Shown one piece after another: positions 3,025 to 62,400 of a stretch of DNA of 64,000 nucleotides (positions within the stretch are counted from its first letter, which is position 1; each line of letters begins with the position of its first letter). The translations under genes were made by a program, and so were the position numbers. Source of the DNA: an uncultured bacterium (GTDB lineage: Bacteria > Patescibacteriota > Dojkabacteria > J137); assembly GCA_963700155.1 (NCBI GenBank), contig OY969472.1, positions 1,000,690 through 1,064,689 of the forward strand, read 5' to 3'. Below the pieces are notes generated by a model. It had not been told where the DNA came from. It saw only the letters and a program-made list of their open reading frames with translations, and made no database searches.

Positions 3025-3045
3025 GTTGAGAATTAGGTTTGAGTT

Positions 3046-3777
3046 ATGAATTCAATAAAAAAATTAATTATTGCTTTTATACGGCTTTCTAGGATTAGAA
3101 CAATATTTGAATATTATTGGTGGGTATTAATAGTGTCAATTATTGCTTCAGGATTACATCTAACTTTGATTAATTATGTATTAGCTACACTAATAACTAT
3201 TTCGATTCATGCGTATTCTTTCATTGTCAATGACTGTGAAGATGCAGATGATGATTCAATGGATTCTAAAAAAGCAAAAAGAAATCCTGTTTCATCTGGC
3301 TTTATAACTTATCGACAAGGAATACTAATTTTACAACTCACTTCTTTCCCTGCTTTAATTTTATCGTATGTTATTTCTGGCCCGGTAGGAGTAATAGTTA
3401 TTTTATCAGCGATTTTTGCTGGGCATTTATATTCATGGAAAAGAGTAAGATTAAAAAGTCTTCCTTTTATTGATTTGGTTTCTCATGCTTATGCTTTAGG
3501 TATGTTTCAGGTTTTATATTTTATGATATTACCAGGAGCTGAAATATCCGTGGGGTCATTCTTGATTTTTTATGGAATCGGTTTATTTTCCTCAGGTGGT
3601 GCTTTATATAATCAGTTAAGAGATCACGAAGTAGATCAAAAATCTGGATTGAATAATACTACTAATGTTATTGGATATGATAGAAGTCGACTTCTTGCTA
3701 TGGGGTTATATTCAGTTGGATTGTTATTTATAATTGCTGGAATTGCTGAAAGGATATTTGTTTTTAAAATTTTATAA
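3046..3777 (+). CDS. UbiA-family prenyltransferase (polytopic membrane protein)
   Basis: Multiple TM segments and the Asp-rich motif NDCEDADDD fit an aromatic prenyltransferase. Confidence 0.5.
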   Translation: MNSIKKLIIAFIRLSRIRTIFEYYWWVLIVSIIASGLHLTLINYVLATLITISIHAYSFIVNDCEDADDDSMDSKKAKRNPVSSGFITYRQGILILQLTSFPALILSYVISGPVGVIVILSAIFAGHLYSWKRVRLKSLPFIDLVSHAYALGMFQVLYFMILPGAEISVGSFLIFYGIGLFSSGGALYNQLRDHEVDQKSGLNNTTNVIGYDRSRLLAMGLYSVGLLFIIAGIAERIFVFKIL

Positions 3778-5019
3778 TTTTAGCTCTCCTTCACTACCCA
3801 ACTTCCAGAATGCGACACCTTTAAGGCCATAATCAGCAGCAAGTTGCTTTCTTAATTGAATAGATTCATCAGTAGGAAAAACTACAATCCTTGAGACTCC
3901 ATTGTAATCATACCTCCCGATAGCTTCGCCCCAGATTTCATTGAATGAATAATCTAGATTGTAGTTTTTAATAACCTTCTCTACTCCACTATGATAATAA
4001 GCATCTCCTGGTTCTAAGTTAAAGATGCTTCCCAGACCTGTGTAATCAGTAGAAAGATTAATTGAAGATGCAATTCGGCGGTCGCTCCAATCGTAGGCAT
4101 ATGTTGGAACTCCTAAAACGATTTTTTCGCGAGGAACTCCCGAAAAAATCGCATATTGTATTACTCTTTCGAGCCACTCTAATGGAGCGACCGGCCCAGC
4201 TTCATCTGAATCTCTTCCATAAAAATCATAAGTCATTATCCTGATCTCATCTACAATATCTGAAATTTGTTTATAATCTTGAACTTGCCTTGTTTGTGGA
4301 TGTCCTAAATAGACAACTACATCACTCCACTTTGGAAGTGCGGTAAATACTAAAGATTTATTTTCTGAAGATAATTCTGATTTCAAATCAGTTAAGAGTT
4401 TAATAAAAATTTGTTTGTCTTCCAGTTTTGTATCTTCAAAATCAAGATCAATACCAGCATAATTATTTTTATCTACAATGCTCATCACATCTTTCATAAA
4501 AATTTTATACTTTTCTTTATCCTCGAATATCTTTGAAAATAAATCAGCATCAAATAATGGAATGGTAGGAATAAGATGAATATTGTTGTCTATCGCAAAA
4601 TCTTTTATATCTTGATTAGTGGAGTTCGAAACTTCTTTTATATGACCATCTTCTTGAGGCATCAACCAGAATGGACTTACACTATAAAATTCATTTGAAA
4701 AATTTTTTAAAGTTTCGAAACCAGCTTCTAACCCCCAATCAGGAATCCATCCAGTATTTTTCAAGCTAATAACCGGTTTTGGCTCTTTGGGTATTGATTT
4801 TAAAGCGTTTTCTTCTAAAGCAAATCTTTCACTAAAACTAAGATAACTTACAGGAGTCTCAACAGGATTATTTAATAAATCATCATTAGTTAAACTTTTT
4901 GAATTATTGATGTTATTTAGTAAATCAAAATTTGAAAAATGAAAAAATAATAACCCTACAATTGAGAAGATTACTAAAATAATTATTAATCCGATTGTTC
5001 TTGAACTTCTCAATTGCAT
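3772..5019 (-). CDS. Glycoside hydrolase family 18 domain protein (YaaH-like), membrane anchored
   Basis: It has an N-terminal TM helix and the GH18 catalytic motif GIDLDFED (the DxDxE variant with DFE, as in YaaH-type enzymes). Confidence 0.55.
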   Translation of the reverse strand: MQLRSSRTIGLIIILVIFSIVGLLFFHFSNFDLLNNINNSKSLTNDDLLNNPVETPVSYLSFSERFALEENALKSIPKEPKPVISLKNTGWIPDWGLEAGFETLKNFSNEFYSVSPFWLMPQEDGHIKEVSNSTNQDIKDFAIDNNIHLIPTIPLFDADLFSKIFEDKEKYKIFMKDVMSIVDKNNYAGIDLDFEDTKLEDKQIFIKLLTDLKSELSSENKSLVFTALPKWSDVVVYLGHPQTRQVQDYKQISDIVDEIRIMTYDFYGRDSDEAGPVAPLEWLERVIQYAIFSGVPREKIVLGVPTYAYDWSDRRIASSINLSTDYTGLGSIFNLEPGDAYYHSGVEKVIKNYNLDYSFNEIWGEAIGRYDYNGVSRIVVFPTDESIQLRKQLAADYGLKGVAFWKLGSEGELKL

Positions 5020-51813: not shown

Positions 51814-53889
51814 ATGAAACCCTTAAGGATTACAATCCTTTTTATTATTATACTTTCATTAAGTATATTTCTTGCAGCTCCATTTTTTAGAATCTCGGCA
51901 AATGTAGTATCTGGTAAATATCTAATTAAAGTTGACAATAATTTTGATTTAAATAGCATCCAATATAATGAAATTAATAACCCAAAAAATTCAAATGGTA
52001 AATGGCTTGAACTTAATATAAAAAATGGAGCTGATTTGGAAGCTTTAAGAAATAATTCACATGTTCTTAATATTCAAAAAGAGGTTAAATATCAGACTAC
52101 CGATAATCCTGACGATCCTTATTATAATGAATTTGGTGGTGTACCTCCATTTACTGATAAATATGATCAGTGGAACTTAAGAGTAATAGGTCTTAATCCT
52201 ACTTCAGGAACATCAGGCTGGAATAATTCAACAGGAGATAATGGGACAATAGTTGCAGTAATAGATACTGGAATCGACCTTGGGAATGAAGATCTTCAGA
52301 ATAATTTATGGACTAACCTTGGTGAAACTCCTGGGAATAGTATTGATGATGATGGAAATGGTTATGTTGATGATGTTAATGGTTGGAATTTTGTTTCAAA
52401 TAGTAATGATATTCAGGATGTAGTAGTTTCTGGGAATGGTAAAGGACATGGAAGTCATGTTTCAGGAATTATTGCTGCTGATAGTAATAATTTAAAAGGT
52501 GTAGCAGGTGTTTGCTGGAATTGTAAATTAATGATATTAAATGTTTTTGATACGAATTCAACAACAAATGATGCAATAGTCTATAACGCTATCATTTATG
52601 CTGTAGACAATGGAGCAAAAGTTATTAATATGAGTATTGAAGGAGGTGGGTATTCCCAAAACATGCAAGATGCTGTTGATTATGCGTGGAGTCATGGAGT
52701 ACTTGTAGTAGTTGCTGCTGGTAATGATGGAGATGATGCATCGTATTATTCGCCTGCAGGTTTGAGTCATGTTATAACCGTCGGGGCTTCAGATCAGAAT
52801 GATACTTCAATTGCTTATGATCCAATCACATGCAATTCTCTAGTTTGTTTTTCAAATTATGGTCAAAAGTTAGATTTGATTGCTCCAGGATATAATATTT
52901 TATCTACGTGGCTTCATACTTTACCAAATACAAGTTGTGTTGGTGATACTAATTATTTTTGTTTAAGTGGAACTTCTATGTCAACACCACATGTAGCTGG
53001 GGTTGCAGCATTAATTTACGATCTACATCCGGGTTGGGATAATCTTGATGTAAGAAATGCATTGTTAAAAGAAGCTGATGATAAAGGTGCAGCTGGTTTC
53101 GATTCATTAGATGGTTTTGGAAGAGTTAATGCATATAATTCTTTAGAAAATGGTACTTCTGTATCAGGAATTACTTCCCCAACAGTTACATTAAATACTC
53201 CTGCAAATTTATATTTTAGTGATAATATAACACTCAATGGCACGGTAAATGCTGATGATTTATATATTTATAATTTGAAGTTTGAAAATTCAGGAAATAC
53301 TGTTTATCTCTATAGTGGACGAGGAAGTACAGACAATTCGGAATTAATAAATCAAGATGTGGGATTATCAGAAGGTGACTATGATGTAACTTTGTCTGCA
53401 GAAGATTTTAATGGAGCTGTAAGTTCGACTACTCCACTTACTATTCATGTTGATTTGACCCCTCCATCAAGTTTTACTATAGGAGCTCAAACAAGTAATA
53501 CATCTGTAACCTTAACTTTTTCGACAACAGATTCTTTGTCAGGAATATCTCATTATGAAGTATCTATGGATAGTGGTACATATCATACAAAGACGTCACC
53601 GTATATTGTTACAAACCTAAGTGATGGTTCTCACACAGCACATGTTAAAGCGTACGATAATGCAGGTAATGTTAAACAGGTAGATAAAACATTTACAATA
53701 ACATCAGAAAATTATATTTTAGAATCGAGCGGAGATTTTAATCATGATGACGATGTAGATTTGTCCGACTTAAGTATACTTGCCTCAAATTGGAACAAAA
53801 ACAGTAATAATGGAGATGCTAACCATGATGGTATTGTTGACTTATCTGATTTGAGTATTTTAGCTTTAAATTGGAATAAAACATTATAG
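51814..53889 (+). CDS. Subtilisin-like serine protease (S8) with Ig-like modules and two C-terminal dockerin-like repeats
   Basis: It has a signal peptide and the catalytic triad contexts VAVIDTGID, HGSHVSGIIA and GTSMSTPHVAG. The C-terminal repeats are DFNHDDDVDLSDLSILASNWN and DANHDGIVDLSDLSILALNWN. Confidence 0.85.
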   Translation: MKPLRITILFIIILSLSIFLAAPFFRISANVVSGKYLIKVDNNFDLNSIQYNEINNPKNSNGKWLELNIKNGADLEALRNNSHVLNIQKEVKYQTTDNPDDPYYNEFGGVPPFTDKYDQWNLRVIGLNPTSGTSGWNNSTGDNGTIVAVIDTGIDLGNEDLQNNLWTNLGETPGNSIDDDGNGYVDDVNGWNFVSNSNDIQDVVVSGNGKGHGSHVSGIIAADSNNLKGVAGVCWNCKLMILNVFDTNSTTNDAIVYNAIIYAVDNGAKVINMSIEGGGYSQNMQDAVDYAWSHGVLVVVAAGNDGDDASYYSPAGLSHVITVGASDQNDTSIAYDPITCNSLVCFSNYGQKLDLIAPGYNILSTWLHTLPNTSCVGDTNYFCLSGTSMSTPHVAGVAALIYDLHPGWDNLDVRNALLKEADDKGAAGFDSLDGFGRVNAYNSLENGTSVSGITSPTVTLNTPANLYFSDNITLNGTVNADDLYIYNLKFENSGNTVYLYSGRGSTDNSELINQDVGLSEGDYDVTLSAEDFNGAVSSTTPLTIHVDLTPPSSFTIGAQTSNTSVTLTFSTTDSLSGISHYEVSMDSGTYHTKTSPYIVTNLSDGSHTAHVKAYDNAGNVKQVDKTFTITSENYILESSGDFNHDDDVDLSDLSILASNWNKNSNNGDANHDGIVDLSDLSILALNWNKTL

Positions 53890-53929
53890 AAAAAGTTTCC
53901 TGTTTTAATTTAATTTTAAATACTATAAA

Positions 53930-55129
53930 ATGGGATTTATGAAGAAAAAAATATTAATCGTTTTTGTCGTAATTTTAAGTATATTTTTAACATTTCCAAA
54001 GGTTGACGCAGCATCAGTTAGTTTTTATACAACTGGAGGTGGAACTGTATATTACGGAAGTCAATTTAATATAAGTGTTTATGCAAACAGTTCAGATTCA
54101 TATAATGGATTTGAAATAAATGTAGATTACACAAACCTTACTTTTGTTGGAGTTTCTGCAGCATCTGGGTGGACTTGTATTGGTGGACCTTCTAATTCTG
54201 GTAATTCTGTTTATTCCGGAGGTTGTGCATTACTTGGAGGAAGTACAACTGGAAGTAAAAATATTCTTAATTTAACTTTTAGAGCTGTTAGCTATGCAGC
54301 AACAGCAACAATTAATAGCTCAGGTAAAATTACACTAGCTAATGGAAGTGGAACCAAAGTAAGTGGAGGCGGCAATACAGTTACTTATTATATAACTGAA
54401 GCACCGCCGCCTCCACCATCGGTACCAAGTGCAGTTAAAATTACTTCAAAAACTCATCCTTCTCAAAAAGATTGGTATAACAAAAATACAATAGAGTTTT
54501 CATGGAATAAAGAAGATGGTGTTGATGCTTTTAGTTATAGACTAGATCAAAAACCTGGTTTTACACCTGATACAAAAAGTGAAGGAGCTGCTACTACATA
54601 TACAACTGAAAATGTTCAGGATGGTATTAATTATTTTCATGTTAGAGCACATAATGATGTGGGGTGGGGGCCAGCGGTTGATTATACTGTGAAAATTGAT
54701 ATGACTGCTCCTGATCCTTTTGCTATTGCAAAGCTTGATAATGAAAGTGGTGATAAATATGTAATTTATTTTGCAACTAATGACAGCAGCTCTGGTATCG
54801 ATCATTATAACGTTGCGGTTGATGGTGTTGATATGGGGAAACAAGCTAGTGGTTATGAAGTTGATAAGTCTGTAGGTACAGTACAAGTTACGGCTTTTGA
54901 TAAAGCTGGTAATAGTATAAGTGAAAGTTTAGAAATTAATAATATTCCAGTAATAGTTACTAACGCACAAGGTGAAGTTCAAGGGTTTGTTTTTGATTTA
55001 AAATCAGCTTTAATTACTGTTGGAATTTTATTCATTCTTTTAATAATTGGTACTGCTCTTTTTATTTATATAAAGTATAGGAAGAAAAAAAACAATAGAA
55101 AAGCTGAGCAGGCACAAGCTCCTACATAA
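53930..55129 (+). CDS. Membrane-anchored surface protein with N-terminal cohesin-like domain, Pro linker and Ig-like modules
   Basis: It has a signal peptide. GSQFNISVYANSSDSYNGFEINVDYTNLTFVGVS resembles the cohesin core strands. A PPPPPSVPS linker follows, then modules homologous to the C-terminal modules of the S8 protease (T(A/P)PDPF...DS.SGI.HY.V..D). A C-terminal TM helix and a basic tail complete it. Confidence 0.45.
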   Translation: MGFMKKKILIVFVVILSIFLTFPKVDAASVSFYTTGGGTVYYGSQFNISVYANSSDSYNGFEINVDYTNLTFVGVSAASGWTCIGGPSNSGNSVYSGGCALLGGSTTGSKNILNLTFRAVSYAATATINSSGKITLANGSGTKVSGGGNTVTYYITEAPPPPPSVPSAVKITSKTHPSQKDWYNKNTIEFSWNKEDGVDAFSYRLDQKPGFTPDTKSEGAATTYTTENVQDGINYFHVRAHNDVGWGPAVDYTVKIDMTAPDPFAIAKLDNESGDKYVIYFATNDSSSGIDHYNVAVDGVDMGKQASGYEVDKSVGTVQVTAFDKAGNSISESLEINNIPVIVTNAQGEVQGFVFDLKSALITVGILFILLIIGTALFIYIKYRKKKNNRKAEQAQAPT

Positions 55130-55820
55130 TTATCTTATTGAGTTCATTTAGATTTAAAATCTTTAATCGACCATATCTTGTTTGAATTAAACCTTTAGAT
55201 TTTAACTCTCCTAATTTTCTAGTAGCAGTTTCTCTTGTAGTTCCGGCAAATGATGCAATTAATTCATGTGATATATTTAAATTGAAATCAATAGTATTTT
55301 CCCTCTTATCTCCTAAATTTTCTGCAAGACTTACTAATGTAGATATAATACGGTATGAACAATCGTGATAGATTAATTGTTTTGCTTTATTAATAACTCT
55401 ATTTACATTTTGGATATAAAGACTTGAGGCGTTACTTCTGGCATCTGGGTTTAATCTTAAAAAATCACCCATTACCCCTTTAGGTATTATCCTAAGTTCA
55501 GATTCTGTTAAAGTTTCATAAAAACATAGTGCAGTCTCATCTCCCTCAAAGTATGGATTTAATGGTAATAAAGAATTATTTTTAAATATACTAATACTTA
55601 ATTCATTTCCATCAACTGATGTAACAAAACTTCTGATAAATCCTCTCTCTAGAAAGTAAAAATTTTCAGATGTGGAATTGGGAGTTAGTATTATTCTCCG
55701 TGGTGGTAAAACATGGATAGAATGTAAAAGGCAGAAGTTCTTGATTTTTTCAGATGTCTTCACCATTAATATAGTACTAAAAATCTTAGTAATATACTCT
55801 CTTATTGACTGAGTATACAA
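55122..55820 (-). CDS. Crp/Fnr-family transcriptional regulator
   Basis: It has a cNMP-binding beta-barrel and a C-terminal HTH (SHELIASFAGTTRETATRKLGELKSKGLI). Confidence 0.8.
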   Translation of the reverse strand: MYTQSIREYITKIFSTILMVKTSEKIKNFCLLHSIHVLPPRRIILTPNSTSENFYFLERGFIRSFVTSVDGNELSISIFKNNSLLPLNPYFEGDETALCFYETLTESELRIIPKGVMGDFLRLNPDARSNASSLYIQNVNRVINKAKQLIYHDCSYRIISTLVSLAENLGDKRENTIDFNLNISHELIASFAGTTRETATRKLGELKSKGLIQTRYGRLKILNLNELNKIIM

Positions 55821-55865
55821 TATATATATTATTCGTCAAGACTGAACAATGCTATCAGCTATAAG

Positions 55866-55881
55866 TGTGATTATTATCACT
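55866..55881. promoter_or_regulatory. CRP-like palindrome TGTGA-ttatta-TCACT
   Basis: It lies in the divergent intergenic region between the Crp/Fnr gene and the first TasA-like gene, 68 nt upstream of the 55949 start. Confidence 0.45.
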
Positions 55882-55948
55882 GTGTTTAATTTAATATTAT
55901 TCTAAATTTCATCTAAAGTCCAAATATTTTATTTTTTATTTTTTATTT

Positions 55949-56590
55949 ATGACCAGAATACTTTCTGGATTACTATTAGTTACTATGCTAGTAGTTTCAG
56001 TGGGAGGCGCAACTTTAGCACTTTTTAGTGACCAGTCAGATATAAAAGGCTTAACTGTAAGCGCAGGTAATGCAAATATCCAATTGGGTTACACTAATGC
56101 TCCTAATAGTCATGTGTTTTTACCAGGCGATTTAGATTTTGGCGGGTCACCTTTTGAAGGCCCCTTATATCCTGGATATCATGCAGGGGTAGTAACTAAT
56201 TTAGATGCTAAAGATTTGTGGGTTGCAAATGTAAGTGCTGCACCTGTTGCTCTTAATTTATCAATGAAATTGACTACATTACCAACAAATTGGGGTAACC
56301 AATTATCATATGCTATAGAAGTTTTAGTAAAAGATGAAAATAGTGGTTTAAACACTGGCTGGATCACTATGACAAGATGGGATGATGCTTATGTTGATTT
56401 ACCTGGTGGATCACTTGCATCAGGTACTTCTAGAAGGTTCTTTATATTTACTAGAGTTCCATTTCATTATGGAGATAATGATTCTTCCTATGCTGGTGGA
56501 CCTACTTTAGGTTCAGATATAGGAAATGAGATTGCAAATCAGACATTATCTGGTGGAGCATTCACAGTATTAGGTGAACAAGTTCCTTAA
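55949..56590 (+). CDS. TasA/camelysin-like protein with SipW-cognate signal peptide (paralog 1)
   Basis: The N-terminus is ...VGGATLALFSDQSDIKGLTVSAGNANIQL (the GGTxAxFSD..NT..AG motif). The shared C-terminal strand is GNEIANQTLSGGAFTVLG. Confidence 0.65.
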   Translation: MTRILSGLLLVTMLVVSVGGATLALFSDQSDIKGLTVSAGNANIQLGYTNAPNSHVFLPGDLDFGGSPFEGPLYPGYHAGVVTNLDAKDLWVANVSAAPVALNLSMKLTTLPTNWGNQLSYAIEVLVKDENSGLNTGWITMTRWDDAYVDLPGGSLASGTSRRFFIFTRVPFHYGDNDSSYAGGPTLGSDIGNEIANQTLSGGAFTVLGEQVP

Positions 56591-56607
56591 TTCTAAAAAT
56601 AGGTTAA

Positions 56608-56634
56608 AAGGGCTCAAATGGAATTTGAGCCCTT
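56608..56634 (+). terminator. Hairpin terminator (12-bp stem, 3-nt loop)
   Basis: AAGGGCTCAAAT-gga-ATTTGAGCCCTT. Confidence 0.55.
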
Positions 56635-56688
56635 CCTATTTATCTTCGTAAAATTATTCCTTTGCTATATACGTTTATAGAATATAAT

Positions 56689-56704
56689 TGTGATATTTAT
56701 CACA
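56689..56704. promoter_or_regulatory. CRP-like palindrome TGTGA-tattta-TCACA
   Basis: It has perfect half-sites and lies 63 nt upstream of the 56767 start. Confidence 0.5.
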
Positions 56705-56766
56705 TTTAATTATTTCTATATTTTCTAAAATTTAAATATCTCTTTTTTATTTTTTAATTTAATTTT

Positions 56767-57300
56767 ATGAAACGGATTTATGCTGCGTTTATAGTGATTA
56801 TTCTGCTTGCAGTTGGAGTAGGAGCAGCAACTTATGCTCTACTATCTGATACTGCAAAAGTAGATGGTATAACACTTGCTACAGGTAATGCAGATATTCA
56901 AATATCAGATGATAGTTTAAACTTCGTTGAAGATTATCCTGTCTCAGATAGTATAACTGGTTTGGTACCAGGTTATCAAAGTCCTACAATAAATTTCCAT
57001 TTAAAAAATAATGGTACAGTAGACCTTCATGTCACTGTAAGGCTTACTCATGCAGATGATGATTGGGCAGCTTTGAAAGATAATGTATATATTCATGTAA
57101 TATCAGCAGATACTGGTATTGATCATGATTTTACACTAGCACAATGGAATTCAACTGACAGGGATCTTGGTAATTTAAGCGTTGGAAGTACTGCAGAATA
57201 TTCTGTTGATGTTCATGTTCCTTCATCAGTTGGAAATGAGATTGCAAATAAACAAATTAATAATGTTACTTTTATTGTAACTGGAACGCAGATTCTTTAA
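56767..57300 (+). CDS. TasA/camelysin-like protein with SipW-cognate signal peptide (paralog 2)
   Basis: N-terminus VGAATYALLSDTAKVDGITLATGNADIQI. C-terminus VGNEIANKQINNVTFIVTGTQ. Confidence 0.65.
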   Translation: MKRIYAAFIVIILLAVGVGAATYALLSDTAKVDGITLATGNADIQISDDSLNFVEDYPVSDSITGLVPGYQSPTINFHLKNNGTVDLHVTVRLTHADDDWAALKDNVYIHVISADTGIDHDFTLAQWNSTDRDLGNLSVGSTAEYSVDVHVPSSVGNEIANKQINNVTFIVTGTQIL

Positions 57301-57356
57301 GAATTAAGTAGTAAGTAATTTTAATATTTAACTCTTTTATATATTAGTTTAACTTT

Positions 57357-57893
57357 ATGAAGCGAATATATGCTGGTTTTATGATAGTGATTCTGCTTGC
57401 AGCGGGTGTTGGAGCAGCAACTTATGCTTTTTTATTTGATAACGCAACAGTAGAAGGAATTTCTATCTCAACAGGAAATGCTGATATTCAAATATGGGAT
57501 GGTTCTGAATATAAAGACTACTGGTTTGTTGGAGCAGCTTTAAATGGATTGTATCCAGGTGCTAGTGAGATTGTTGATGCTAAATTAAAAAATGCAAGTA
57601 CTTCTGATATACCACTTAAAGTTTCATTACAATTAACAAGTGCTGGTGGTGATTGGGGGGCACTTAAAGATGCAATTAAAATTAAAGTTGCAGACAATAC
57701 TAATACAACAGTATATCTTAACAAGACATTATCTGAACTTAATTCTCAAGCTTGGGACTTTGGTCCTGATATCCCTTTTGGTGGTGATCAAGAATATAAA
57801 ATAACAGTGTATATTCCTGATTCATTTGGAAATGAAATTAAGAATAAGACCATTAATCCTGTTCAATTTGTAATAACAGGTACACAGGATTAA
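57357..57893 (+). CDS. TasA/camelysin-like protein with SipW-cognate signal peptide (paralog 3)
   Basis: N-terminus VGAATYAFLFDNATVEGISISTGNADIQI. C-terminus FGNEIKNKTINPVQFVITGTQ. There is no terminator between paralogs 2 and 3. Confidence 0.6.
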   Translation: MKRIYAGFMIVILLAAGVGAATYAFLFDNATVEGISISTGNADIQIWDGSEYKDYWFVGAALNGLYPGASEIVDAKLKNASTSDIPLKVSLQLTSAGGDWGALKDAIKIKVADNTNTTVYLNKTLSELNSQAWDFGPDIPFGGDQEYKITVYIPDSFGNEIKNKTINPVQFVITGTQD

Positions 57894-57905
57894 TTTTGGT
57901 TATTG

Positions 57906-57934
57906 AAGTGATTGTTTAGGCGCTTAAATTGAAA
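57906..57934 (+). terminator. Hairpin terminator (13-bp stem)
   Basis: AGGCGCTTAAATT-gaa-AATTTAAGCGCCT followed by a T/A-rich run. Confidence 0.55.
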
Positions 57935-58070
57935 ATTTAAGCGCCTTTAATATATTTATATAATTAACATCAATATAAATTTAACAATTTTAGTAATATA
58001 TTCAAATATACATTATATATACAGTAAAAATTAAATTAATATAAAGTAGTTATAAATAAATAGAATTAAT

Positions 58071-58086
58071 TGTGATTTATATCACT
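58071..58086. promoter_or_regulatory. CRP-like palindrome TGTGA-tttata-TCACT
   Basis: It lies 62 nt upstream of the 58148 start, the same spacing as the other sites. Confidence 0.45.
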
Positions 58087-58147
58087 GTTATAATTTCATT
58101 TATGTTTTAAATTAATCGTAAATATTTTATTTCTTATATATTATTTT

Positions 58148-58726
58148 ATGGTAAGAATACTAGCGGGATTTCTCGTAATAGTTTCTTTATTAACAGCTGT
58201 AGGAGGAGCAACATTAGCTGTTTTTAGTGACACAAGCGAAATATTAGGTAATACAATTTCAACAGCACAGGTAGATATTGATGCACACGGTGAGTCAAAT
58301 AATACCACAGCACCAAAACCAATTGATGAAAGTGGCTTGGTTCCAGGTGAATGGACAGATTGGTTTAGAGGTATAGTTTATAATAAAGCAGATAGTACAA
58401 ATGTAAGAGTTTATATGTATTTAAGTAATGTTACAGGAGCTGCATGTAGTAAAACTAATTTAACTGTTAGAACAGGTTTTGCTGGAAGTGATGCAGGAGA
58501 AAGAGCAAACTCAATGTATGATGGTTCAGTCGCAGGTTTGACAGGACCAGGTAATAGAATAGAACTTACAGGTCCAGTATTTCATGCACCTGACTGGCTA
58601 CCATATAATACATCATTAGTAGTACAACAGGCTGCACAATTAGACCCTTCAGCTGGTAACACATACACAAATAAATCTTGTGATTGGTCAGAAGTATTTG
58701 TAGCTGAGACACCTACCTTACCTTAA
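58148..58726 (+). CDS. TasA/camelysin-like protein with SipW-cognate signal peptide (paralog 4, divergent C-terminus)
   Basis: N-terminus VGGATLAVFSDTSEILGNTISTAQVDIDA. The body is divergent. Confidence 0.6.
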   Translation: MVRILAGFLVIVSLLTAVGGATLAVFSDTSEILGNTISTAQVDIDAHGESNNTTAPKPIDESGLVPGEWTDWFRGIVYNKADSTNVRVYMYLSNVTGAACSKTNLTVRTGFAGSDAGERANSMYDGSVAGLTGPGNRIELTGPVFHAPDWLPYNTSLVVQQAAQLDPSAGNTYTNKSCDWSEVFVAETPTLP

Positions 58727-58749
58727 GTTAGGACTTTTTTAGCTTTTAA

Positions 58750-58776
58750 AGTCCCGGCAATTTCATTGCCGGGACT
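58750..58776 (+). terminator. Hairpin (12-bp stem), weak T-tract
   Basis: AGTCCCGGCAAT-ttc-ATTGCCGGGACT. Confidence 0.45.
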
Positions 58777-58818
58777 GTTGGTATTTAATATATCTGTATA
58801 GAATGTTAATATTAGTCA

Positions 58819-59385
58819 ATGAAAAATTCATCACCTTTGAAAGTTGTTTATAAAGTTATTGTTACAATAGTATTAATTCTTTTTGTTGCTTTAGCAACTT
58901 TAACAATACTCTCTTTATTAGAATTTCCAAGACAATTTAGAATCTTTGTTGTCGAAACAGGATCAATGTCTCCAACAATTCCTGCCGGGAGTTTGATTAT
59001 TGATTCTAGTGAGAATACATATAAAGTTGGGGATATTATTACTTTTAATGCTCTTGCCGATTCTGAATCTACAAAAGTTACACCGATAACTCATAGACTT
59101 ACCCAGATTATTCAACAAAATGGTGTTACAGTATATGAAACAAAGGGAGATGCAAACAATGCTCCTGACGGGGAATATCGAGATCCAAATAATGTAATAG
59201 GTAAAGTACAATTTTATTTACCTTATGTTGGAACACTAGTTGGTTTTGCAAAAACACAACTTGGATTCGTTATAGTAATACTGATTCCAACAATATTAAT
59301 TATTTTGAGCGAACTTAATAACATTAAAAAAGAATTTATAAAACTAAAGGAAAAGAAAAGTGAGAAGTTAAATATTAATACGTAA
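58819..59385 (+). CDS. sipW: Signal peptidase I, SipW (archaeal/ER) type
   Basis: It has an N-terminal TM helix, the catalytic Ser context VETGSMSPTIPAGSLII, and a C-terminal TM helix. Its size of about 190 aa is SipW-like. Confidence 0.8.
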   Translation: MKNSSPLKVVYKVIVTIVLILFVALATLTILSLLEFPRQFRIFVVETGSMSPTIPAGSLIIDSSENTYKVGDIITFNALADSESTKVTPITHRLTQIIQQNGVTVYETKGDANNAPDGEYRDPNNVIGKVQFYLPYVGTLVGFAKTQLGFVIVILIPTILIILSELNNIKKEFIKLKEKKSEKLNINT

Positions 59386-59389
59386 CCTT

Positions 59390-59626
59390 ATGTTAAAAAA
59401 ATTTTTAGTAGTAGTAATTATTATAACTAGCTTTTTGATCATGGCTCAAGGAACAAAAGCATTATTCTCCGATGTGGAGCATATTCCTAATAATACTATC
59501 AGTACTGCAGATTCGTTTTCAATTGAACACGATGAGAATCAAGTCACTAATCCTAAAGTTCCAGATGACACTGAAAATGAGCAGCAAACTACTGAACCTC
59601 CAATAAGCTACTCATTAGACCATTAG
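59390..59626 (+). CDS. Short TasA-like protein (signal peptide plus ALFSD..NTISTA motif, 78 aa)
   Basis: It starts 4 nt after the sipW stop (operonic). Sequence MLKKFLVVVIIITSFLIMAQGTKALFSDVEHIPNNTISTADSFSIE followed by an acidic/Pro tail. Confidence 0.45.
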   Translation: MLKKFLVVVIIITSFLIMAQGTKALFSDVEHIPNNTISTADSFSIEHDENQVTNPKVPDDTENEQQTTEPPISYSLDH

Positions 59627-59674
59627 ACAATCCCAAGTGTGTAAAGTGGAGCGAAATGAGGTATAATAACCTTC

Positions 59675-60901
59675 ATGGAATTAATTTATCTGCTTCATTT
59701 TTATCAACCTGACTTTCAGTTCAGAGAAATCTTAGAAGAAGTTTACAATAAATCATATAAAAAAGTTTTTAAGATAATTAAGGATTCTCCAAATGCAAAA
59801 ATAGCAATTAATATTACTGCCTCGACAATTGAGAAAATTAATAACTATAATGCAGGAGACATCATTAGAGATCTAAAAAGTCTATATAAAACCGGAAGAG
59901 TAGAATTTACTGCTACTAGTCTGGCACATGTACTTCTTTCTGAAGCAACTTATGAGCAAGCTTTAAGACAAATTAAACTAGATATAGAGAAAAAATCTTA
60001 CTTTTTGGATATACCAGAAAAAGAATTTAAAGTTTTGTTTCCACCCGAACTAAGTATAAATCCCCAAGTCTTAAAGCTTGCGAAAAATTTAGGAATTGAA
60101 GGATTAATCGTTTCTCATAATTCAATTGAAAATTTTAAAGAAGGTGATACTACTTTATTAAACTCTAATCAGAAAATATTTGTAAGATCTCTGAAGGTAA
60201 GTCGAATGTTAGAATCTGAGAATACAATGACTTCTGAAGAATTTTTAAATATTTTTCAAGAACAAGGATTAGAAACTAATGGATTATATTTAGCTGCTCA
60301 TGACGTAGAAATTATTGGTTTTCGATTTGAAAAGAAACTTAAACTTTTTAAAGAGATTTTAAATAATCCTAAAATTAAATTAGTTTCTTTTGATCAAATA
60401 CTAAAAATGAATAAATTTAAGAGTTATAATGGTAAGTTGCTTCAAGGAACTTGGGAGAAAATTTTGATTAATGATGAACTAAGTGATGTACATTGGAATA
60501 ATCCTGAAAATAAGATTCATAAATATCAATGGAAGCTTTCAAATTTAATAATTAATCAGATCGAGAAGTTTCCTGAAATTAATACTAAATCAGAACTTCA
60601 AATTCATTTAGATTATATACAGTATAGTTGTCAATATTGGTGGGCAAGTTCATATCCGTATTGGAGTGCTGGGATAATTTCAAATGCTGCTTGGTCATGG
60701 TTATATCTAGCATATAAAGTCTATTATGCTTTAAAAATGATTGATAAAGAAAAAGCTGAAAGGTTTATTAACCAAGCAAAACAAAATTATATGCGTTTAA
60801 TTGAGACATTAACTGAATATGATATTACAAAATGGCATGAAAAAAATATTCATTATTATGATCAAAATATACATTCTCTAAAATTATCTTATAAATTATG
60901 A
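59675..60901 (+). CDS. Glycoside hydrolase family 57-like protein
   Basis: The N-terminal pattern LLHFYQP...EEVYNKSYKKVFKIIKDSPNAKIAINITASTIEKI parallels the GH57 H-x-H-Q-P...EEAYNRSY...P..K....FSG.LLE.I region. The HxH motif is degenerate. It overlaps the glgA start. Confidence 0.45.
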   Translation: MELIYLLHFYQPDFQFREILEEVYNKSYKKVFKIIKDSPNAKIAINITASTIEKINNYNAGDIIRDLKSLYKTGRVEFTATSLAHVLLSEATYEQALRQIKLDIEKKSYFLDIPEKEFKVLFPPELSINPQVLKLAKNLGIEGLIVSHNSIENFKEGDTTLLNSNQKIFVRSLKVSRMLESENTMTSEEFLNIFQEQGLETNGLYLAAHDVEIIGFRFEKKLKLFKEILNNPKIKLVSFDQILKMNKFKSYNGKLLQGTWEKILINDELSDVHWNNPENKIHKYQWKLSNLIINQIEKFPEINTKSELQIHLDYIQYSCQYWWASSYPYWSAGIISNAAWSWLYLAYKVYYALKMIDKEKAERFINQAKQNYMRLIETLTEYDITKWHEKNIHYYDQNIHSLKLSYKL

Positions 60902-62400
60902 AGAAACAAAATAAAACAAAACTGAAAGTTCTATTAATTGCTGCTGAAATGTGGCCTTATGCAAGTGTTGGTGGATTAAGTAGGTTTACATATAATTTAC
61001 CGAAATCGTTAAAAAAACAAAATATTGATGTAAGAGTATTTATGCCTAAATATGGAAAGATCGATACTAAAGAGTTCCCAATGGAATCAGAAGTATTAGG
61101 TATAGAAATGCCTTTTAAAGATTTTGATAAAAAAGTAACTTGCAATGTTCTTTCAAATGAATATGCAGGTGTAAAGACATATTTCCTTGAGAATCAGGAA
61201 TATTATGAACTACGTGCTAACGAATATGGATATATTGACGATCATATTAGGTGGGGACTTCTTCAAAGAGGAATGTGGGAGTTTTTAAAAACTAGTGATT
61301 GGATACCGGATATCATTCATTGTAATGATTGGCAAACTGGACTTGTAGCAAATTACTATATTCAAGAATATAGTAAAATTAAAAAGTTATCTAAAATTAA
61401 GACTATACTTACATTGCATAATTTACGATTTCAAGCTCCATATGATCACATGTTTGTTACTGAAGTTGATTTTGATGCAGGGAAAAGTCAGATACCACCA
61501 ATAACATCTCATTCATTTGAAAGATTAAATAGCATAAGAAGAGGAATTATTTATTCTACTGCACTTACAACTGTTTCCCCAACATATTCTCAAGAAATTT
61601 TAACACCTGAATTTGGTGAGGGTTTAGAGAGATTGTTAAATGAACTTAGATTTAAACTAAGAGGAATATTAAATGGAATCGATTATGATGATTTTGACCC
61701 AGAGACAGATCAAAATATTTCGCAAAGTTTTAAAATCGGAGAATGGGATAAACGTGAGAAAAATAAAGAAGCTTTGCAAGAAAAATTTCTTTTTGATGTG
61801 GATCCTGAAGCACCACTTTTTGTAATTTCATACAGATTAACAGATCAAAAAGGTTTAAGTTTAGTAACTTCCGTTATTGAAACAATATTAAACGAGTATG
61901 GAGCACAGTTGATTGTAAACGGTGATGGAGATACTGCTTTTAAAAGCTTTTTTAGATATTTATCTGAGAAACATCCTAAACAAGTTGGAGTTAATTTAGT
62001 TTATGATGATAAATTGCCTAGACAGCTGTTTGCTGGTGGTGATTTTGTACTTCATCCTTCAAAATTTGAACCTTGTGGAATTGTTCAAATTGAAGCCATG
62101 AGATATGGATGTATTCCAATTATTCGTGAGGTTGGAGGATTAGCAGATACTGTTTTCGAAGGTAAAAATGGATTTACATTTAAAAAGTTCACAGATCAAT
62201 CTTTATTAATGACTATCTCGCGAGCTATCGAAGTGTTTAAATATAAAAATTTGATTAATTCATTTAGAAAATCTTGTATGGAACAAGACTTTTCTTGGGA
62301 TAACTCTGCTAAAGAATATATAAAACTCTATAAGGATATTCGAAAAAACACTAAAAATTCTGAATATTTCTCTCAAAGACCCAGTCAGATATTTACTTAA
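60898..62400 (+). CDS. glgA: Glycogen/starch synthase (GT5)
   Basis: The N-terminus is KVLLIAAEMWPYASVGGLSRFTYNLPKSLKKQNIDVRVFMPKYG (the K-x-G-G-L motif). The C-terminal GT-B fold has E..G...I.REVGGL. Confidence 0.9.
   Translation: MKKQNKTKLKVLLIAAEMWPYASVGGLSRFTYNLPKSLKKQNIDVRVFMPKYGKIDTKEFPMESEVLGIEMPFKDFDKKVTCNVLSNEYAGVKTYFLENQEYYELRANEYGYIDDHIRWGLLQRGMWEFLKTSDWIPDIIHCNDWQTGLVANYYIQEYSKIKKLSKIKTILTLHNLRFQAPYDHMFVTEVDFDAGKSQIPPITSHSFERLNSIRRGIIYSTALTTVSPTYSQEILTPEFGEGLERLLNELRFKLRGILNGIDYDDFDPETDQNISQSFKIGEWDKREKNKEALQEKFLFDVDPEAPLFVISYRLTDQKGLSLVTSVIETILNEYGAQLIVNGDGDTAFKSFFRYLSEKHPKQVGVNLVYDDKLPRQLFAGGDFVLHPSKFEPCGIVQIEAMRYGCIPIIREVGGLADTVFEGKNGFTFKKFTDQSLLMTISRAIEVFKYKNLINSFRKSCMEQDFSWDNSAKEYIKLYKDIRKNTKNSEYFSQRPSQIFT

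Follow-up and report, generated by a model that had tools for sequence, protein, structure and literature searches.

The 64-kb window analysed here, a single stretch of 64,000 nucleotides, contains what we read as a fibre locus of the TasA superfamily, from a small-genome, low-GC host that resembles CPR/Patescibacteria. Taken whole, with the mechanism of regulation and assembly proposed below, we give this reading a probability of about 0.72. The locus is a variant of a known TasA-type system, not a new kind. Seven open reading frames (ORFs), encoding a Crp/Fnr-family regulator, four paralogs, a signal peptidase and a mini-paralog, are present where the original prediction had placed them (Table 1). 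Five of these ORFs (within 55949–59626) have a common SipW-type signal peptide and N-terminal strand, an ER/archaeal-type signal peptidase adjoins them and the Crp/Fnr-family gene is divergent from the fibre genes, all as predicted. The mechanical ORF of the regulator (55122–55820, minus strand) reaches a TTG at 55820; the start is more likely the ATG at 55766, which is also the call in public assemblies.

Table 1. Features of the fibre locus, in window coordinates
Feature	Position	Strand	Remarks
Crp/Fnr-family transcription factor gene	55122..55766	-	214 aa from ATG 55766
CRP-type box 1 (TGTGATTATTATCACT)	55866..55881	+	shared divergent intergenic region, upstream of paralog 1
Predicted -10 hexamer TAAATT, promoter P1	55903..55908	+	21 nt after box 1
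Paralog 1, putative fibre subunit type A	55949..56590	+	213 aa; TIGR04088 above cut-off; GNEIANQ...FTVLGEQ C-terminus
Stem-loop after paralog 1, terminator-like	56608..56634	+	dG -19.3 kcal/mol, z -4.6
CRP-type box 2 (perfect palindrome TGTGATATTTATCACA)	56689..56704	+	upstream of paralog 2
Paralog 2, putative fibre subunit type A	56767..57300	+	177 aa
Paralog 3, putative fibre subunit type A	57357..57893	+	178 aa; tandem duplicate of paralog 2
Stem-loop after paralog 3, terminator-like	57918..57946	+	dG -17.4 kcal/mol, z -4.9
CRP-type box 3 (TGTGATTTATATCACT)	58071..58086	+	upstream of paralog 4
Paralog 4, putative fibre subunit type B	58148..58726	+	192 aa; conserved core subfamily
GC-rich stem-loop, paralog 4–peptidase gap, candidate attenuator	58750..58776	+	dG -22.4 kcal/mol, z -5.7
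ER/archaeal-type (SipW-type) signal peptidase I gene	58819..59385	+	188 aa; hydrophobic segments N- and C-terminal
Mini-paralog	59390..59626	+	78 aa; signal peptide, donor-strand region (LFSDVEHIPNNTISTADSFSI) and tail

Secreted proteins of the TasA superfamily

Alignments reveal an N-terminal signature common to the five ORFs, T-x-A | x-F/L-S/F-D ... T-I/V/L-S/A-T/A. An N-terminal hidden Markov model (HMM), whose training alignment included the four full-length paralogs but not the mini-paralog, was searched against every ORF of 40 aa or more in the window and matched just these five: the four paralogs of its own training alignment at E ~1e-23 and the held-out mini-paralog at E 9e-8, with the next-best ORF at E 0.34. 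Because the model separates the five from all other ORFs of the window, the signature is not due to chance. The FSD motif lies, as predicted, at the position of a cleavage site, directly after T-x-A, and lines up with the mature N-termini that experiments established for TasA (AFNDI) and TapA (AFHDI) (PMC10151520). With the SipW-cognate signal model TIGR04088 (cut-off 19 bits), paralog 1 scores above the cut-off (21.1 bits), the mini-paralog narrowly under it (18.3), and paralogs 4 (14.9) and 2 (14.3) lower still, with no match to paralog 3.

The TasA/camelysin relationship itself stands. A 119-sequence family profile (A6) matches TasA and AbpX (8aur_A, E 1.4e-4; 5of1_A, 8.9e-4; AbpX 9sj2, 1.2e-3) with N- and C-terminal motifs aligned, the C-terminal N.Y.GNSI.LQFSFEATQ falling on GNEIA..S....F.FTGTQ in the TasA/AbpX profile comparison. 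PF12389 (Peptidase_M73 / TasA-camelysin, which takes in AbpA, AbpX and CanA) is matched by 47 of the 119 relatives at E<0.01, the best at 4.4e-9. No window protein reaches its gathering score of 22.5 bits; paralog 2 comes closest, with 17.2 bits over its N-terminal part only, and the other paralogs have no match. The wider family numbers 10,949 representatives at E<=1e-3. The predicted fold is a jelly-roll/beta-sandwich closest to solved fibre subunits of the TasA superfamily.

Two subfamilies are present. Paralogs 1–3 (type A) carry the predicted C-terminal GNEI.N...F.V.G.Q motif in the alignments; paralog 1 was included in family alignments A3 and A4, and paralog 3 is 49% identical to paralog 2, the two forming a 590-nt direct repeat (D1). 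Paralog 4, previously taken for a diverged copy, is instead a member of a distinct conserved core subfamily, type B, in which two Cys are invariant and the C-terminus carries an SC.W.EVFVAE motif. A type-B gene followed by a peptidase gene recurs across CPR phyla, on Moran-, Berkel-, Parcu- and Saccharibacteria-labelled contigs. In profile–profile comparison, types A and B are linked over the N-terminal 65 columns only. No cell-wall anchor was identified.

A SipW-type signal peptidase

The peptidase proved to be of the SipW/ER type rather than LepB-like, as the original prediction had it. It scores 107 bits with TIGR02228 (cut-off 51.85) and 24.7 bits with the bacterial model TIGR02227, below the cut-off of 47, and it is a Ser–His rather than a Ser–Lys enzyme, with His standing where LepB-type enzymes have Lys. 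Its closest solved relatives are human SEC11A/C (E 1e-7), with GSMSP, THR and D117 aligned, and no LepB-type chain matched among its PDB relatives. S49 (GSMSP), H92 (ITHRL) and D117 align with SEC11A counterparts that we take to be catalytic. With the Bacillus SipW equivalog NF046067 it scores 99.5 bits, below the cut-off of 190. Judged by these scores, the enzyme is of the same type as Bacillus SipW and not its orthologue by NCBI's criterion.

A Crp-family regulator and conserved boxes

The regulator matches PF13545 (HTH_Crp_2; 62 bits, cut-off 27), PF00027 (cNMP_binding; 30.7, cut-off 27.5) and PF00325 (29.3, cut-off 21), and pairs a cNMP-binding-like beta-barrel domain with a C-terminal Crp-type HTH, as is typical of the Crp/Fnr family; its closest solved relatives are NtcA and CRP. 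Aligned to 4bh9_A, its recognition helix TRETATR corresponds to R180/E181/R185 of E. coli CRP, an R-E-x3-R helix that, going by structural knowledge of CRP, presumably reads TGTGA. The same alignment places L/T/A at the cAMP-contact positions E72/R82/S83. Because these contact residues are not conserved, the effector is probably not cAMP, and the earlier description of the regulator as cNMP-linked is unsupported. The protein also falls outside CRP sensu stricto, scoring 45.5 bits with the CRP equivalog NF008732, whose cut-off is 266. Homologues with 50–56% identity occupy the equivalent place in the syntenic loci L034–L037.

Matches to TGTGA-N6-TCAC occur at four distinct sites in the 64 kb (five strand matches, against 0.27 matches expected), and three of the four sit upstream of fibre genes (paralogs 1, 2 and 4). 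These conserved boxes before the fibre units back the claim that the regulator is dedicated to them. Boxes 1, 2 and 3 start 83, 78 and 77 nt from the respective ATG, and boxes 2 and 3 are followed by predicted -10 hexamers TAAAAT (56726–56731) and TAAATT (58108–58113). The distance from box to TAnAnT hexamer is exactly 21 nt in eight of eight promoters from four syntenic genomes, so that the boxes are predicted, by way of -10 hexamers called in AT-rich DNA, to be centred at about -41.5, the class II activation geometry of CRP. In none of the eight promoters is there a -35 element separate from the box.

Among syntenic loci, L034 and L036 have perfect boxes upstream of every complete fibre gene, and L035 has one upstream of its paralog-1-like gene and another near the contig end. 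A Crp neighbour is missing from most type-B loci, and Crp control is therefore clade-specific. Three distant type-B loci do have one: exact boxes are found in two of them, L002, where the box separates crp from the type-B gene, and L014, where a 1224-aa gene is the only one with a box upstream; L032 has no exact box. The Crp-less type-B loci have no intergenic box; their sole box, in L030, is intragenic.

Could the boxes repress, or be read by another, global Crp-family protein, with the neighbouring regulator a bystander? Such an arrangement would fit the lack of a Crp neighbour at most CPR type-B loci and the presence of box 1 in the regulator's own upstream region as well, and the transcription starts on which activation depends are predicted. 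Against it, the window, L034, L035 and L036 each have both the gene and the boxes, the Crp-less loci have no intergenic box, and of the distant loci with a Crp neighbour L002 has its box between the regulator and the type-B gene, although L014 has one only before the 1224-aa gene and L032 has none. The invariant class II spacing, the missing -35 elements and the retained CRP-like helix likewise argue for local activation, and we consider a bystander or repressor unlikely.

Three stem-loops punctuate the locus. The one that separates paralog 4 from the peptidase gene has a tail that is not U-rich. Hairpins after type-A and type-B genes, differing in sequence, are also present in both relatives examined, L034 and L036, including at the position equivalent to the paralog-1 stem-loop. 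Paralogs 2 and 3 are probably co-transcribed, because only 56 nt separate them and paralog 3 has no box of its own.

A probable strand-only partner and the proposed fibre assembly

Beyond its signal peptide and strand, the mini-paralog consists of an acidic, Pro/Gln/Thr-rich tail of ~30 residues. Its scores with TIGR04088 and with the TapA model TIGR04087 (17.6 bits) are both below cut-off (19 and 80 bits), and the TapA match is confined to the signal and strand region. We rejected its identification as TapA proper on that score and on length, since 78 aa leave no room for the Ig-like central domain. Of the full-length paralogs, paralog 4 has the most similar strand (10 of 22 positions, versus 5–7 for type A). 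A search of 5.8 billion proteins gave no detectable sequence homologue. Directly after sipW stand equivalents of 89 aa in the syntenic L036 (E 4e-7) and 97 aa in L014, making three mini forms in all, which have in common a short C-terminal [ILA]-S-Y-[PS] motif. Identity to the L036 form is ~32%, compared with 50–60% for the flanking proteins there. The slot is that of the X proteins, donor-strand-bearing partners that elsewhere adjoin or are fused to sipW.

TapA is thought to give the first donor strand in B. subtilis, and cells secreting only TapA residues 44–57 still form a proper biofilm (PMC10151520; PMC9674648). The mini-paralog has the look of a minimal donor-strand protein of the TapA type, which casts doubt on the assertion that the locus lacks a TapA-like gene; by analogy with TapA we infer that the mini-paralog is a candidate minimal TapA-like initiator. 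Other roles are less probable: it may block the acceptor groove as a cap or terminator, tether something to the surface through its tail, or be what is left of a larger partner in decay. The C-terminal motif might be such a tether, the positional equivalents elsewhere are far larger (158–713 aa) or fused to the peptidase, so that the 78-aa form could be a truncation, and the sequence search returned no close homologue. Decay is hard to square with the retention of a mini form in place in both the syntenic L036 and the unrelated L014, and a strand-only protein, having no groove of its own, could sit nowhere but at the acceptor end, where TapA has been proposed to sit. An initiator and a cap are both compatible with the data on the mini-paralog.

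The conserved mature N-terminus corresponds to the TasA donor strand (residues 28–38; PMC9674648) and is consistent with donor-strand complementation, by which the subunits would polymerise. We judge it quite improbable that the paralogs are non-polymerising jelly-roll proteins, such as adhesins or camelysin-like proteins of the surface or matrix, that have only the SipW-dependent export route in common with fibre subunits. Under the polymerisation reading, the Crp-family regulator, whose DNA-reading helix is CRP-like and whose effector is probably not cAMP, would bind the three TGTGA-N6-TCAC boxes and, from about -41.5, activate three units: paralog 1; paralogs 2–3; and paralog 4, hairpin, peptidase and mini-paralog. 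The pre-proteins would be exported and then cut after T-x-A by the dedicated ER/SipW-type peptidase. Cleavage would free an N-terminal x-F-S-D... strand to insert, on the model of TasA and archaeal bundling pili, into the jelly-roll of the next subunit by donor-strand complementation, giving extracellular fibres. The mini-protein, a strand with a disordered tail, would most likely give the type-B subunit its first donor strand as a natural 'minimal TapA', and the hairpin after the type-B gene may keep peptidase and initiator scarce relative to the subunit.

Only tentatively do we extend this to a small-genome, CPR-like clade in which a non-cAMP Crp-family sensor drives class II promoters of a two-subfamily, TasA-type donor-strand fibre primed by a strand-only 'mini-TapA', with primer–peptidase fusion in relatives and a possible attachment or matrix organelle as the outcome. 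If so, the fused peptidase in relatives would release its own substrate, and episymbiotic bacteria might have in this fibre a regulated organelle for attachment or matrix formation, separate from their type IV pili.

Comparison with known systems

Like tapA-sipW-tasA of B. subtilis, the locus encodes secreted jelly-roll subunits whose signal peptide is of the SipW type and whose mature N-terminus reads x-F-x-D, an ER-type signal peptidase of its own within the operon, and a partner, presumably of low abundance here too, bearing the same N-terminal strand; the PG, N.S and N.(Y/I)..(N/K).(I/L)...F.F..TQ motifs are those of TasA. It differs in having four subunit genes of two subfamilies rather than one gene, mature subunits of ~150 aa (234 in TasA) without TasA's insertions, the order subunit–peptidase–partner, and predicted Crp-family control in place of SinR (PMC9674648). 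Its proteins also stay below the cut-offs of PF12389, the TapA model and, for the peptidase, the Bacillus SipW equivalog. The partner, at 78 aa in total, has no TapA Ig domain, its similarity to TapA ending with the signal and strand. It more closely resembles the engineered tapA1-57 of B. subtilis, in which a signal peptide and ~14 mature N-terminal residues suffice for biofilm (PMC10151520): as far as its sequence tells, the mini-protein is a natural equivalent in which a signal peptide and a donor-strand region stand without a folded domain; unlike the engineered form, it keeps the ~30-residue tail and short conserved C-terminal motif.

The small TasA-superfamily jelly-roll subunits of archaeal bundling pili, AbpA/AbpB of Pyrobaculum calidifontis (PDB 7UEG) and AbpX of Pyrodictium abyssi (PDB 9SJ2), are a second parallel. 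These archaeal subunits polymerise by donor-strand complementation, AbpB and other tip or minor proteins have been proposed to start the archaeal filament, and the AbpX gene is likewise followed by a TIGR02228 peptidase. That peptidase reportedly has ten TM helices, whereas the window enzyme has two hydrophobic segments, and AbpA has no dedicated peptidase. No strand-only partner is described for these pili, and no Crp regulator is reported at the AbpA, AbpB and AbpX loci, which instead have histidine kinases, c-di-GMP enzymes and Spo0A-like regulators nearby.

The predicted promoters resemble E. coli class II CRP/CAP promoters (site at -41.5) in the 16-bp TGTGA-N6-TCACA palindrome, its predicted -41.5 centre, the lack of a separate -35 element and the R-E-x3-R recognition helix of the regulator. 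They differ in that the regulator does not conserve the cAMP-contact residues of E. coli CRP, and in that its predicted regulon is local, comprising three promoters at one locus, whereas that of E. coli CRP is global.

Gene set and TasA-superfamily membership

All the open reading frames named in the original prediction are found in the window, which has a GC content of ~30%: a Crp/Fnr-family regulator gene, four TasA-like fibre subunit genes (paralogs 1-4), a signal peptidase gene (sipW) and a short fifth secreted reading frame, the mini-paralog. A tandem duplication, with a period of 590 nt, accounts for paralogs 2 and 3. In all five secreted proteins a hydrophobic leader closes with T-x-A; next come x-(F/L)-(S/F)-D and a T-(I/V/L)-(S/A)-(T/A) strand. 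An N-terminal HMM made from the first 52 alignment columns, with the mini-paralog held out and the four full-length paralogs in the training alignment, picked exactly these five out of all window ORFs (E about 1e-23 for the training paralogs and 9e-8 for the held-out mini-paralog; next ORF, E 0.34).

Features of the window and of related loci on other contigs
Feature	Locus	Position	Strand	Details
Crp/Fnr-family gene	window	55122-55820	minus	start more likely ATG 55766, as in public assemblies
Paralog 1	window	55949-56590	plus	213 aa
Paralog 2	window	56767-57300	plus	177 aa
Paralog 3	window	57357-57893	plus	178 aa
Paralog 4	window	58148-58726	plus	192 aa
Peptidase	window	58819-59385	plus	188 aa
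Mini-paralog	window	59390-59626	plus	78 aa
Predicted box 1	window	55866		TGTGATTATTATCACT; upstream of paralog 1
Predicted box 2	window	56689		TGTGATATTTATCACA; upstream of paralog 2
Predicted box 3	window	58071		TGTGATTTATATCACT; upstream of paralog 4
Mini C-terminal motif	window	59600-59626		PPISYSLDH
Mini C-terminal motif	L036	3585-3620		EQLSYPVGR
Mini C-terminal motif	L014	7440-7487		EIASYPVVMVVE
In-frame peptidase C-terminal extension	L006	8659-9633		
In-frame peptidase C-terminal extension	L009	160-1290		
In-frame peptidase C-terminal extension	L012	5901-7775		
In-frame peptidase C-terminal extension	L017	3515-4423		
In-frame peptidase C-terminal extension	L032	1959-2753		

Curated models gave a mixed picture. 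The SipW-cognate signal peptide proposed for all five proteins held for paralog 1, which exceeds the TIGR04088 cut-off; the mini-paralog falls just below it, paralogs 2 and 4 score lower and paralog 3 has no match. PF12389 (TasA/camelysin) matches only paralog 2, below threshold, and a four-sequence profile searched against the PDB returned only AbpX, at a non-significant E of 0.95. A profile built from the paralogs plus their first matches reached 10,949 cluster representatives at E<=1e-3, and 47 of the 119 top relatives match PF12389 (best 4e-9). Searched against solved structures, the 119-sequence profile matches the TasA fibre chain 8AUR (1.4e-4), monomeric TasA 5OF1 (9e-4) and AbpX (1.2e-3), and its alignment to TasA covers both the N-terminal strand/PG/N.S region and the originally noted C-terminal motif, where GNEIA..S....F.FTGTQ aligns with TasA QNKYQGNSIKLQFSFEATQ. 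These matches to TasA and AbpX bear out the proposed TasA/camelysin kinship. By fold and profile, the system belongs to the TasA superfamily; because the curated thresholds for PF12389, TapA and Bacillus SipW were failed, it is a divergent clade rather than a set of orthologues. Reading the alternative family name, Peptidase_M73, as a protease is ruled out, as there is no metal-binding motif. No cell-envelope anchor was identified.

Experiments have fixed the mature N-termini as AFNDI for TasA and AFHDI for TapA, and the T-x-A / x-F-S-D junction of the window proteins, the predicted cleavage site, lies in the same register, as the original interpretation requires. The donor strand of TasA is formed by residues 28-38, the very first mature residues; we infer that the window subunits polymerise. 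The neighbouring peptidase matches the archaeal/ER-type model TIGR02228 with 107 bits (cut-off 51.85), fails the bacterial LepB-type model and scores below the cut-off of the Bacillus SipW equivalog. Its only solved relatives are human SEC11A/C, with which the GSMSP serine, the THR histidine and one aspartate align. The peptidase is thus of the SipW/ER type and not of the LepB type, as predicted.

Two subunit subfamilies

Homologues of the subunits form two groups. Type A, comprising paralogs 1-3, ends in GNEIA...F.V.GTQ and has no cysteine; type B, comprising paralog 4, ends in SC.W.EVFVAE and has two invariant cysteines (Cys100 and Cys178 of paralog 4, in GxAC.KTN and SC.W.EVFVAE), conserved in 7/7 aligned type-B proteins. 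Their invariance suggests a disulfide. Paralog 4, previously described as a diverged copy, is therefore a member of a subfamily of its own. Only the N-terminal 65 columns of types A and B aligned in hhalign, so homology of the C-terminal domains rests on fold and the MAFFT alignment. Within type A, paralog 1 has an insertion of ~17 residues, HYGDNDSSYAGGPTLGSDI (56455-56520, residues about 170-190), ahead of the GNEIA motif; this is also present in P0006 and partly in P0009, and marks a subgroup.

Genome and metagenome contigs scanned with the type-B alignment yielded 27 loci, 18 of them on metagenome contigs that carry no organism label. Eight of the nine organism-labelled genome contigs bear CPR/Patescibacteria labels (Moran-, Berkel-, Parcu- and Saccharibacteria). 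The ninth, L008 (CAYMZX010000002.1), is 5 kb long and carries a type-B gene, sipW and an X gene (encoding a product beside sipW); it is labelled 'uncultured Gammaproteobacteria bacterium' and is probably mis-binned, because all other labelled loci are CPR. The labels of homologous contigs, the 1.14-Mb size of the window's own contig and its low GC are the grounds for calling the source bacterium CPR-like. In every locus that has downstream sequence, a SipW-type peptidase gene comes after the type-B gene, sometimes with a type-A gene between them. In the metagenome locus L011 (2516-5813), two SipW-type peptidase genes alternate with fibre genes, in the order A, sipW, B-like, sipW and Big_7 protein, an arrangement that suggests duplication of the whole module.

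Predicted CRP-type promoters and transcription units

A family of 47-nt direct repeats led to three CRP-type palindromes, or boxes, in the window. The consensus TGTGA-N6-TCAC has five strand matches in the 64 kb, at four distinct sites, versus 0.27 matches expected. The fourth site (TGTGAGAACCATCAC, 53621-53635, minus strand) lies in the 3' part of an S8 subtilase gene, 309 nt upstream of the ORF for a 399-aa protein; we rejected it as an operator because it is inside the S8 gene and not conserved in relatives, and it is probably a chance match. At two loci syntenic with the window, L034 and L036, a perfect TGTGAT-N4-ATCACA box precedes every complete fibre gene; a third, L035, has two boxes, one ahead of the paralog-1-like gene and the other close to the end of the contig.

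When the eight promoters from these three loci and the window are aligned on the box, a TAnAnT hexamer follows it after exactly 21 nt in 8/8, and 70-84 nt separate the start of the box from the ATG. A generic promoter scan performed no better than shuffles (32 found versus 31 expected), so the -10 assignment, and with it the predicted transcription starts (near 55915, 56738 and 58120), is taken from this cross-genome spacing. With this hexamer as the -10 element, the box would be centred at -41.5. In E. coli, this is the geometry of class II CRP activation. Boxes also occur at distant type-B loci with a Crp neighbour: L002 carries a perfect one between crp and the type-B gene, and L014 has a perfect one (1169-1184) upstream of the 1224-aa gene that heads its cluster; L032, with a Crp neighbour, has none, and the Crp-less type-B loci have no intergenic box. 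The gene for this 1224-aa protein (1322-4996), which has faint Peptidase_M26_N and Glug matches, is followed in L014 by crp, the type-B gene, sipW and a mini gene, and the regulon there may include a large surface protein.

The regulator itself retains the CRP recognition residues (TRETATR, corresponding to R180/E181/R185), which together with the boxes supports the view of a dedicated Crp/Fnr regulator. The suggested link to cyclic nucleotides is not supported, since the cAMP contacts E72/R82/S83 are replaced by L/T/A; the effector is probably something other than cAMP. FNR-type sensing is ruled out, as the sequence has no N-terminal Cys cluster. The best solved relatives are NtcA proteins, and the closest homologues (50-56% identity) are on contigs syntenic with the window.

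Paralogs 1, 3 and 4 are each followed by a strong stem-loop (dG -17 to -22 kcal/mol, z -4.6 to -5.7); the mini gene is not. L034 and L036 have hairpins of different sequence at the same positions. Between the type-B and peptidase genes, the hairpin has no U-rich tail, and may attenuate transcription rather than stop it. By analogy with TasA and TapA, for which a ratio of about 100:1 has been reported, attenuation would fit a high ratio of subunit to initiator. An Rfam scan of 54500-60500 returned nothing at E<=0.1, leaving the long AT-rich spacer between paralogs 3 and 4 without a known RNA.

A strand-only partner protein encoded after the peptidase

In related loci, the product of the gene directly 3' of the peptidase gene has the signal and strand of the window proteins; its strand ends in G-x-W and leads into a Pro-rich linker and a variable C-terminal part. 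These products range from 54-97 aa up to 158-713 aa, and in L006, L009, L012, L017 and L032 they are fused in frame to the peptidase C-terminus. The extensions consist of a basic stretch, a new hydrophobic segment, a SipW-cognate motif, such as TNAYFSSQATISGNTFSAGIW, and a domain that varies between loci (LTD in L012). The fused peptidase appears to carry its own substrate, which it might release by self-cleavage.

The mini-paralog starts 4 nt past the peptidase stop, in exactly this slot. Its strand, in which F replaces W, is most like that of paralog 4 (10/22 positions) and precedes an acidic Pro/Gln/Thr-rich tail. Sequence searches with the mini-paralog found only itself, and its relatives were recovered by position: equivalents of 89 aa in L036 (E 4e-7) and 97 aa in L014 both overlap the peptidase stop. 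Retention in the slot in these loci indicates that the mini-paralog is maintained and not decaying.

TapA of B. subtilis is believed to provide TasA with its first strand, and cells secreting TapA residues 44-57 alone still make a proper biofilm (PMC10151520; PMC9674648). On the strength of this analogy, we read the mini-paralog as a natural minimal TapA-like initiator; it may instead be a cap or a tether. The statement that the locus has no TapA-like gene stands for homology, as the mini-paralog scores 17.6 bits against TIGR04087 (cut-off 80), and is probably wrong for function. The three mini tails are of low complexity and otherwise unalignable, and share a C-terminal [I/L/A]-S-Y-[P/S] motif that might be a tether or recognition tag.

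Relation to known systems and neighbouring genes

TasA-type fibres are known from Bacillus and archaea, and the locus is not a new kind of machine; its working is likened here to that of tapA-sipW-tasA and the archaeal bundling pili. New here are the array of two subfamilies, the strand-only partner with its peptidase fusions in relatives, and the Crp-box promoters. Published accounts of AbpX-like loci name histidine kinases, c-di-GMP enzymes and Spo0A-like proteins as nearby regulators, not Crp. A literature text search for TasA in Patescibacteria returned only one sentence on PF12389 distribution and no study of such loci. The system is compact and fully specified for an uncultivated lineage (subunits, peptidase, candidate initiator, regulator, operators and putative attenuators) and could be rebuilt in a heterologous host. 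It lets one ask whether the smallest natural fibre initiator is a strand-only peptide, how a single assembly route serves two subunit subfamilies, and what signal a CRP-like, non-cAMP regulator senses in cell-contact-dependent organisms.

The stretch directly downstream (59675-62400) carries a gene of the GH57 family and another resembling GT5 glycogen synthase, the stop codon of one overlapping the start codon of the other. The 48-nt gap between the mini gene and GH57 contains no hairpin, and read-through from the fibre operon into these carbohydrate genes is possible. Upstream, 51814-55129 encodes the S8 subtilase, with Ig-like and dockerin-like modules, and then the secreted 399-aa protein, with a PPPPP linker, OmpL47/fn3-like domains and a C-terminal membrane anchor. 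We left both out of the system because GH57, GT5 and PCMT genes are equally syntenic in L036 and because both are absent from the distant type-B loci. In the window, as in L034-L037, the two adjoin the regulator gene; they have a common domain with 30-36% identity between them.
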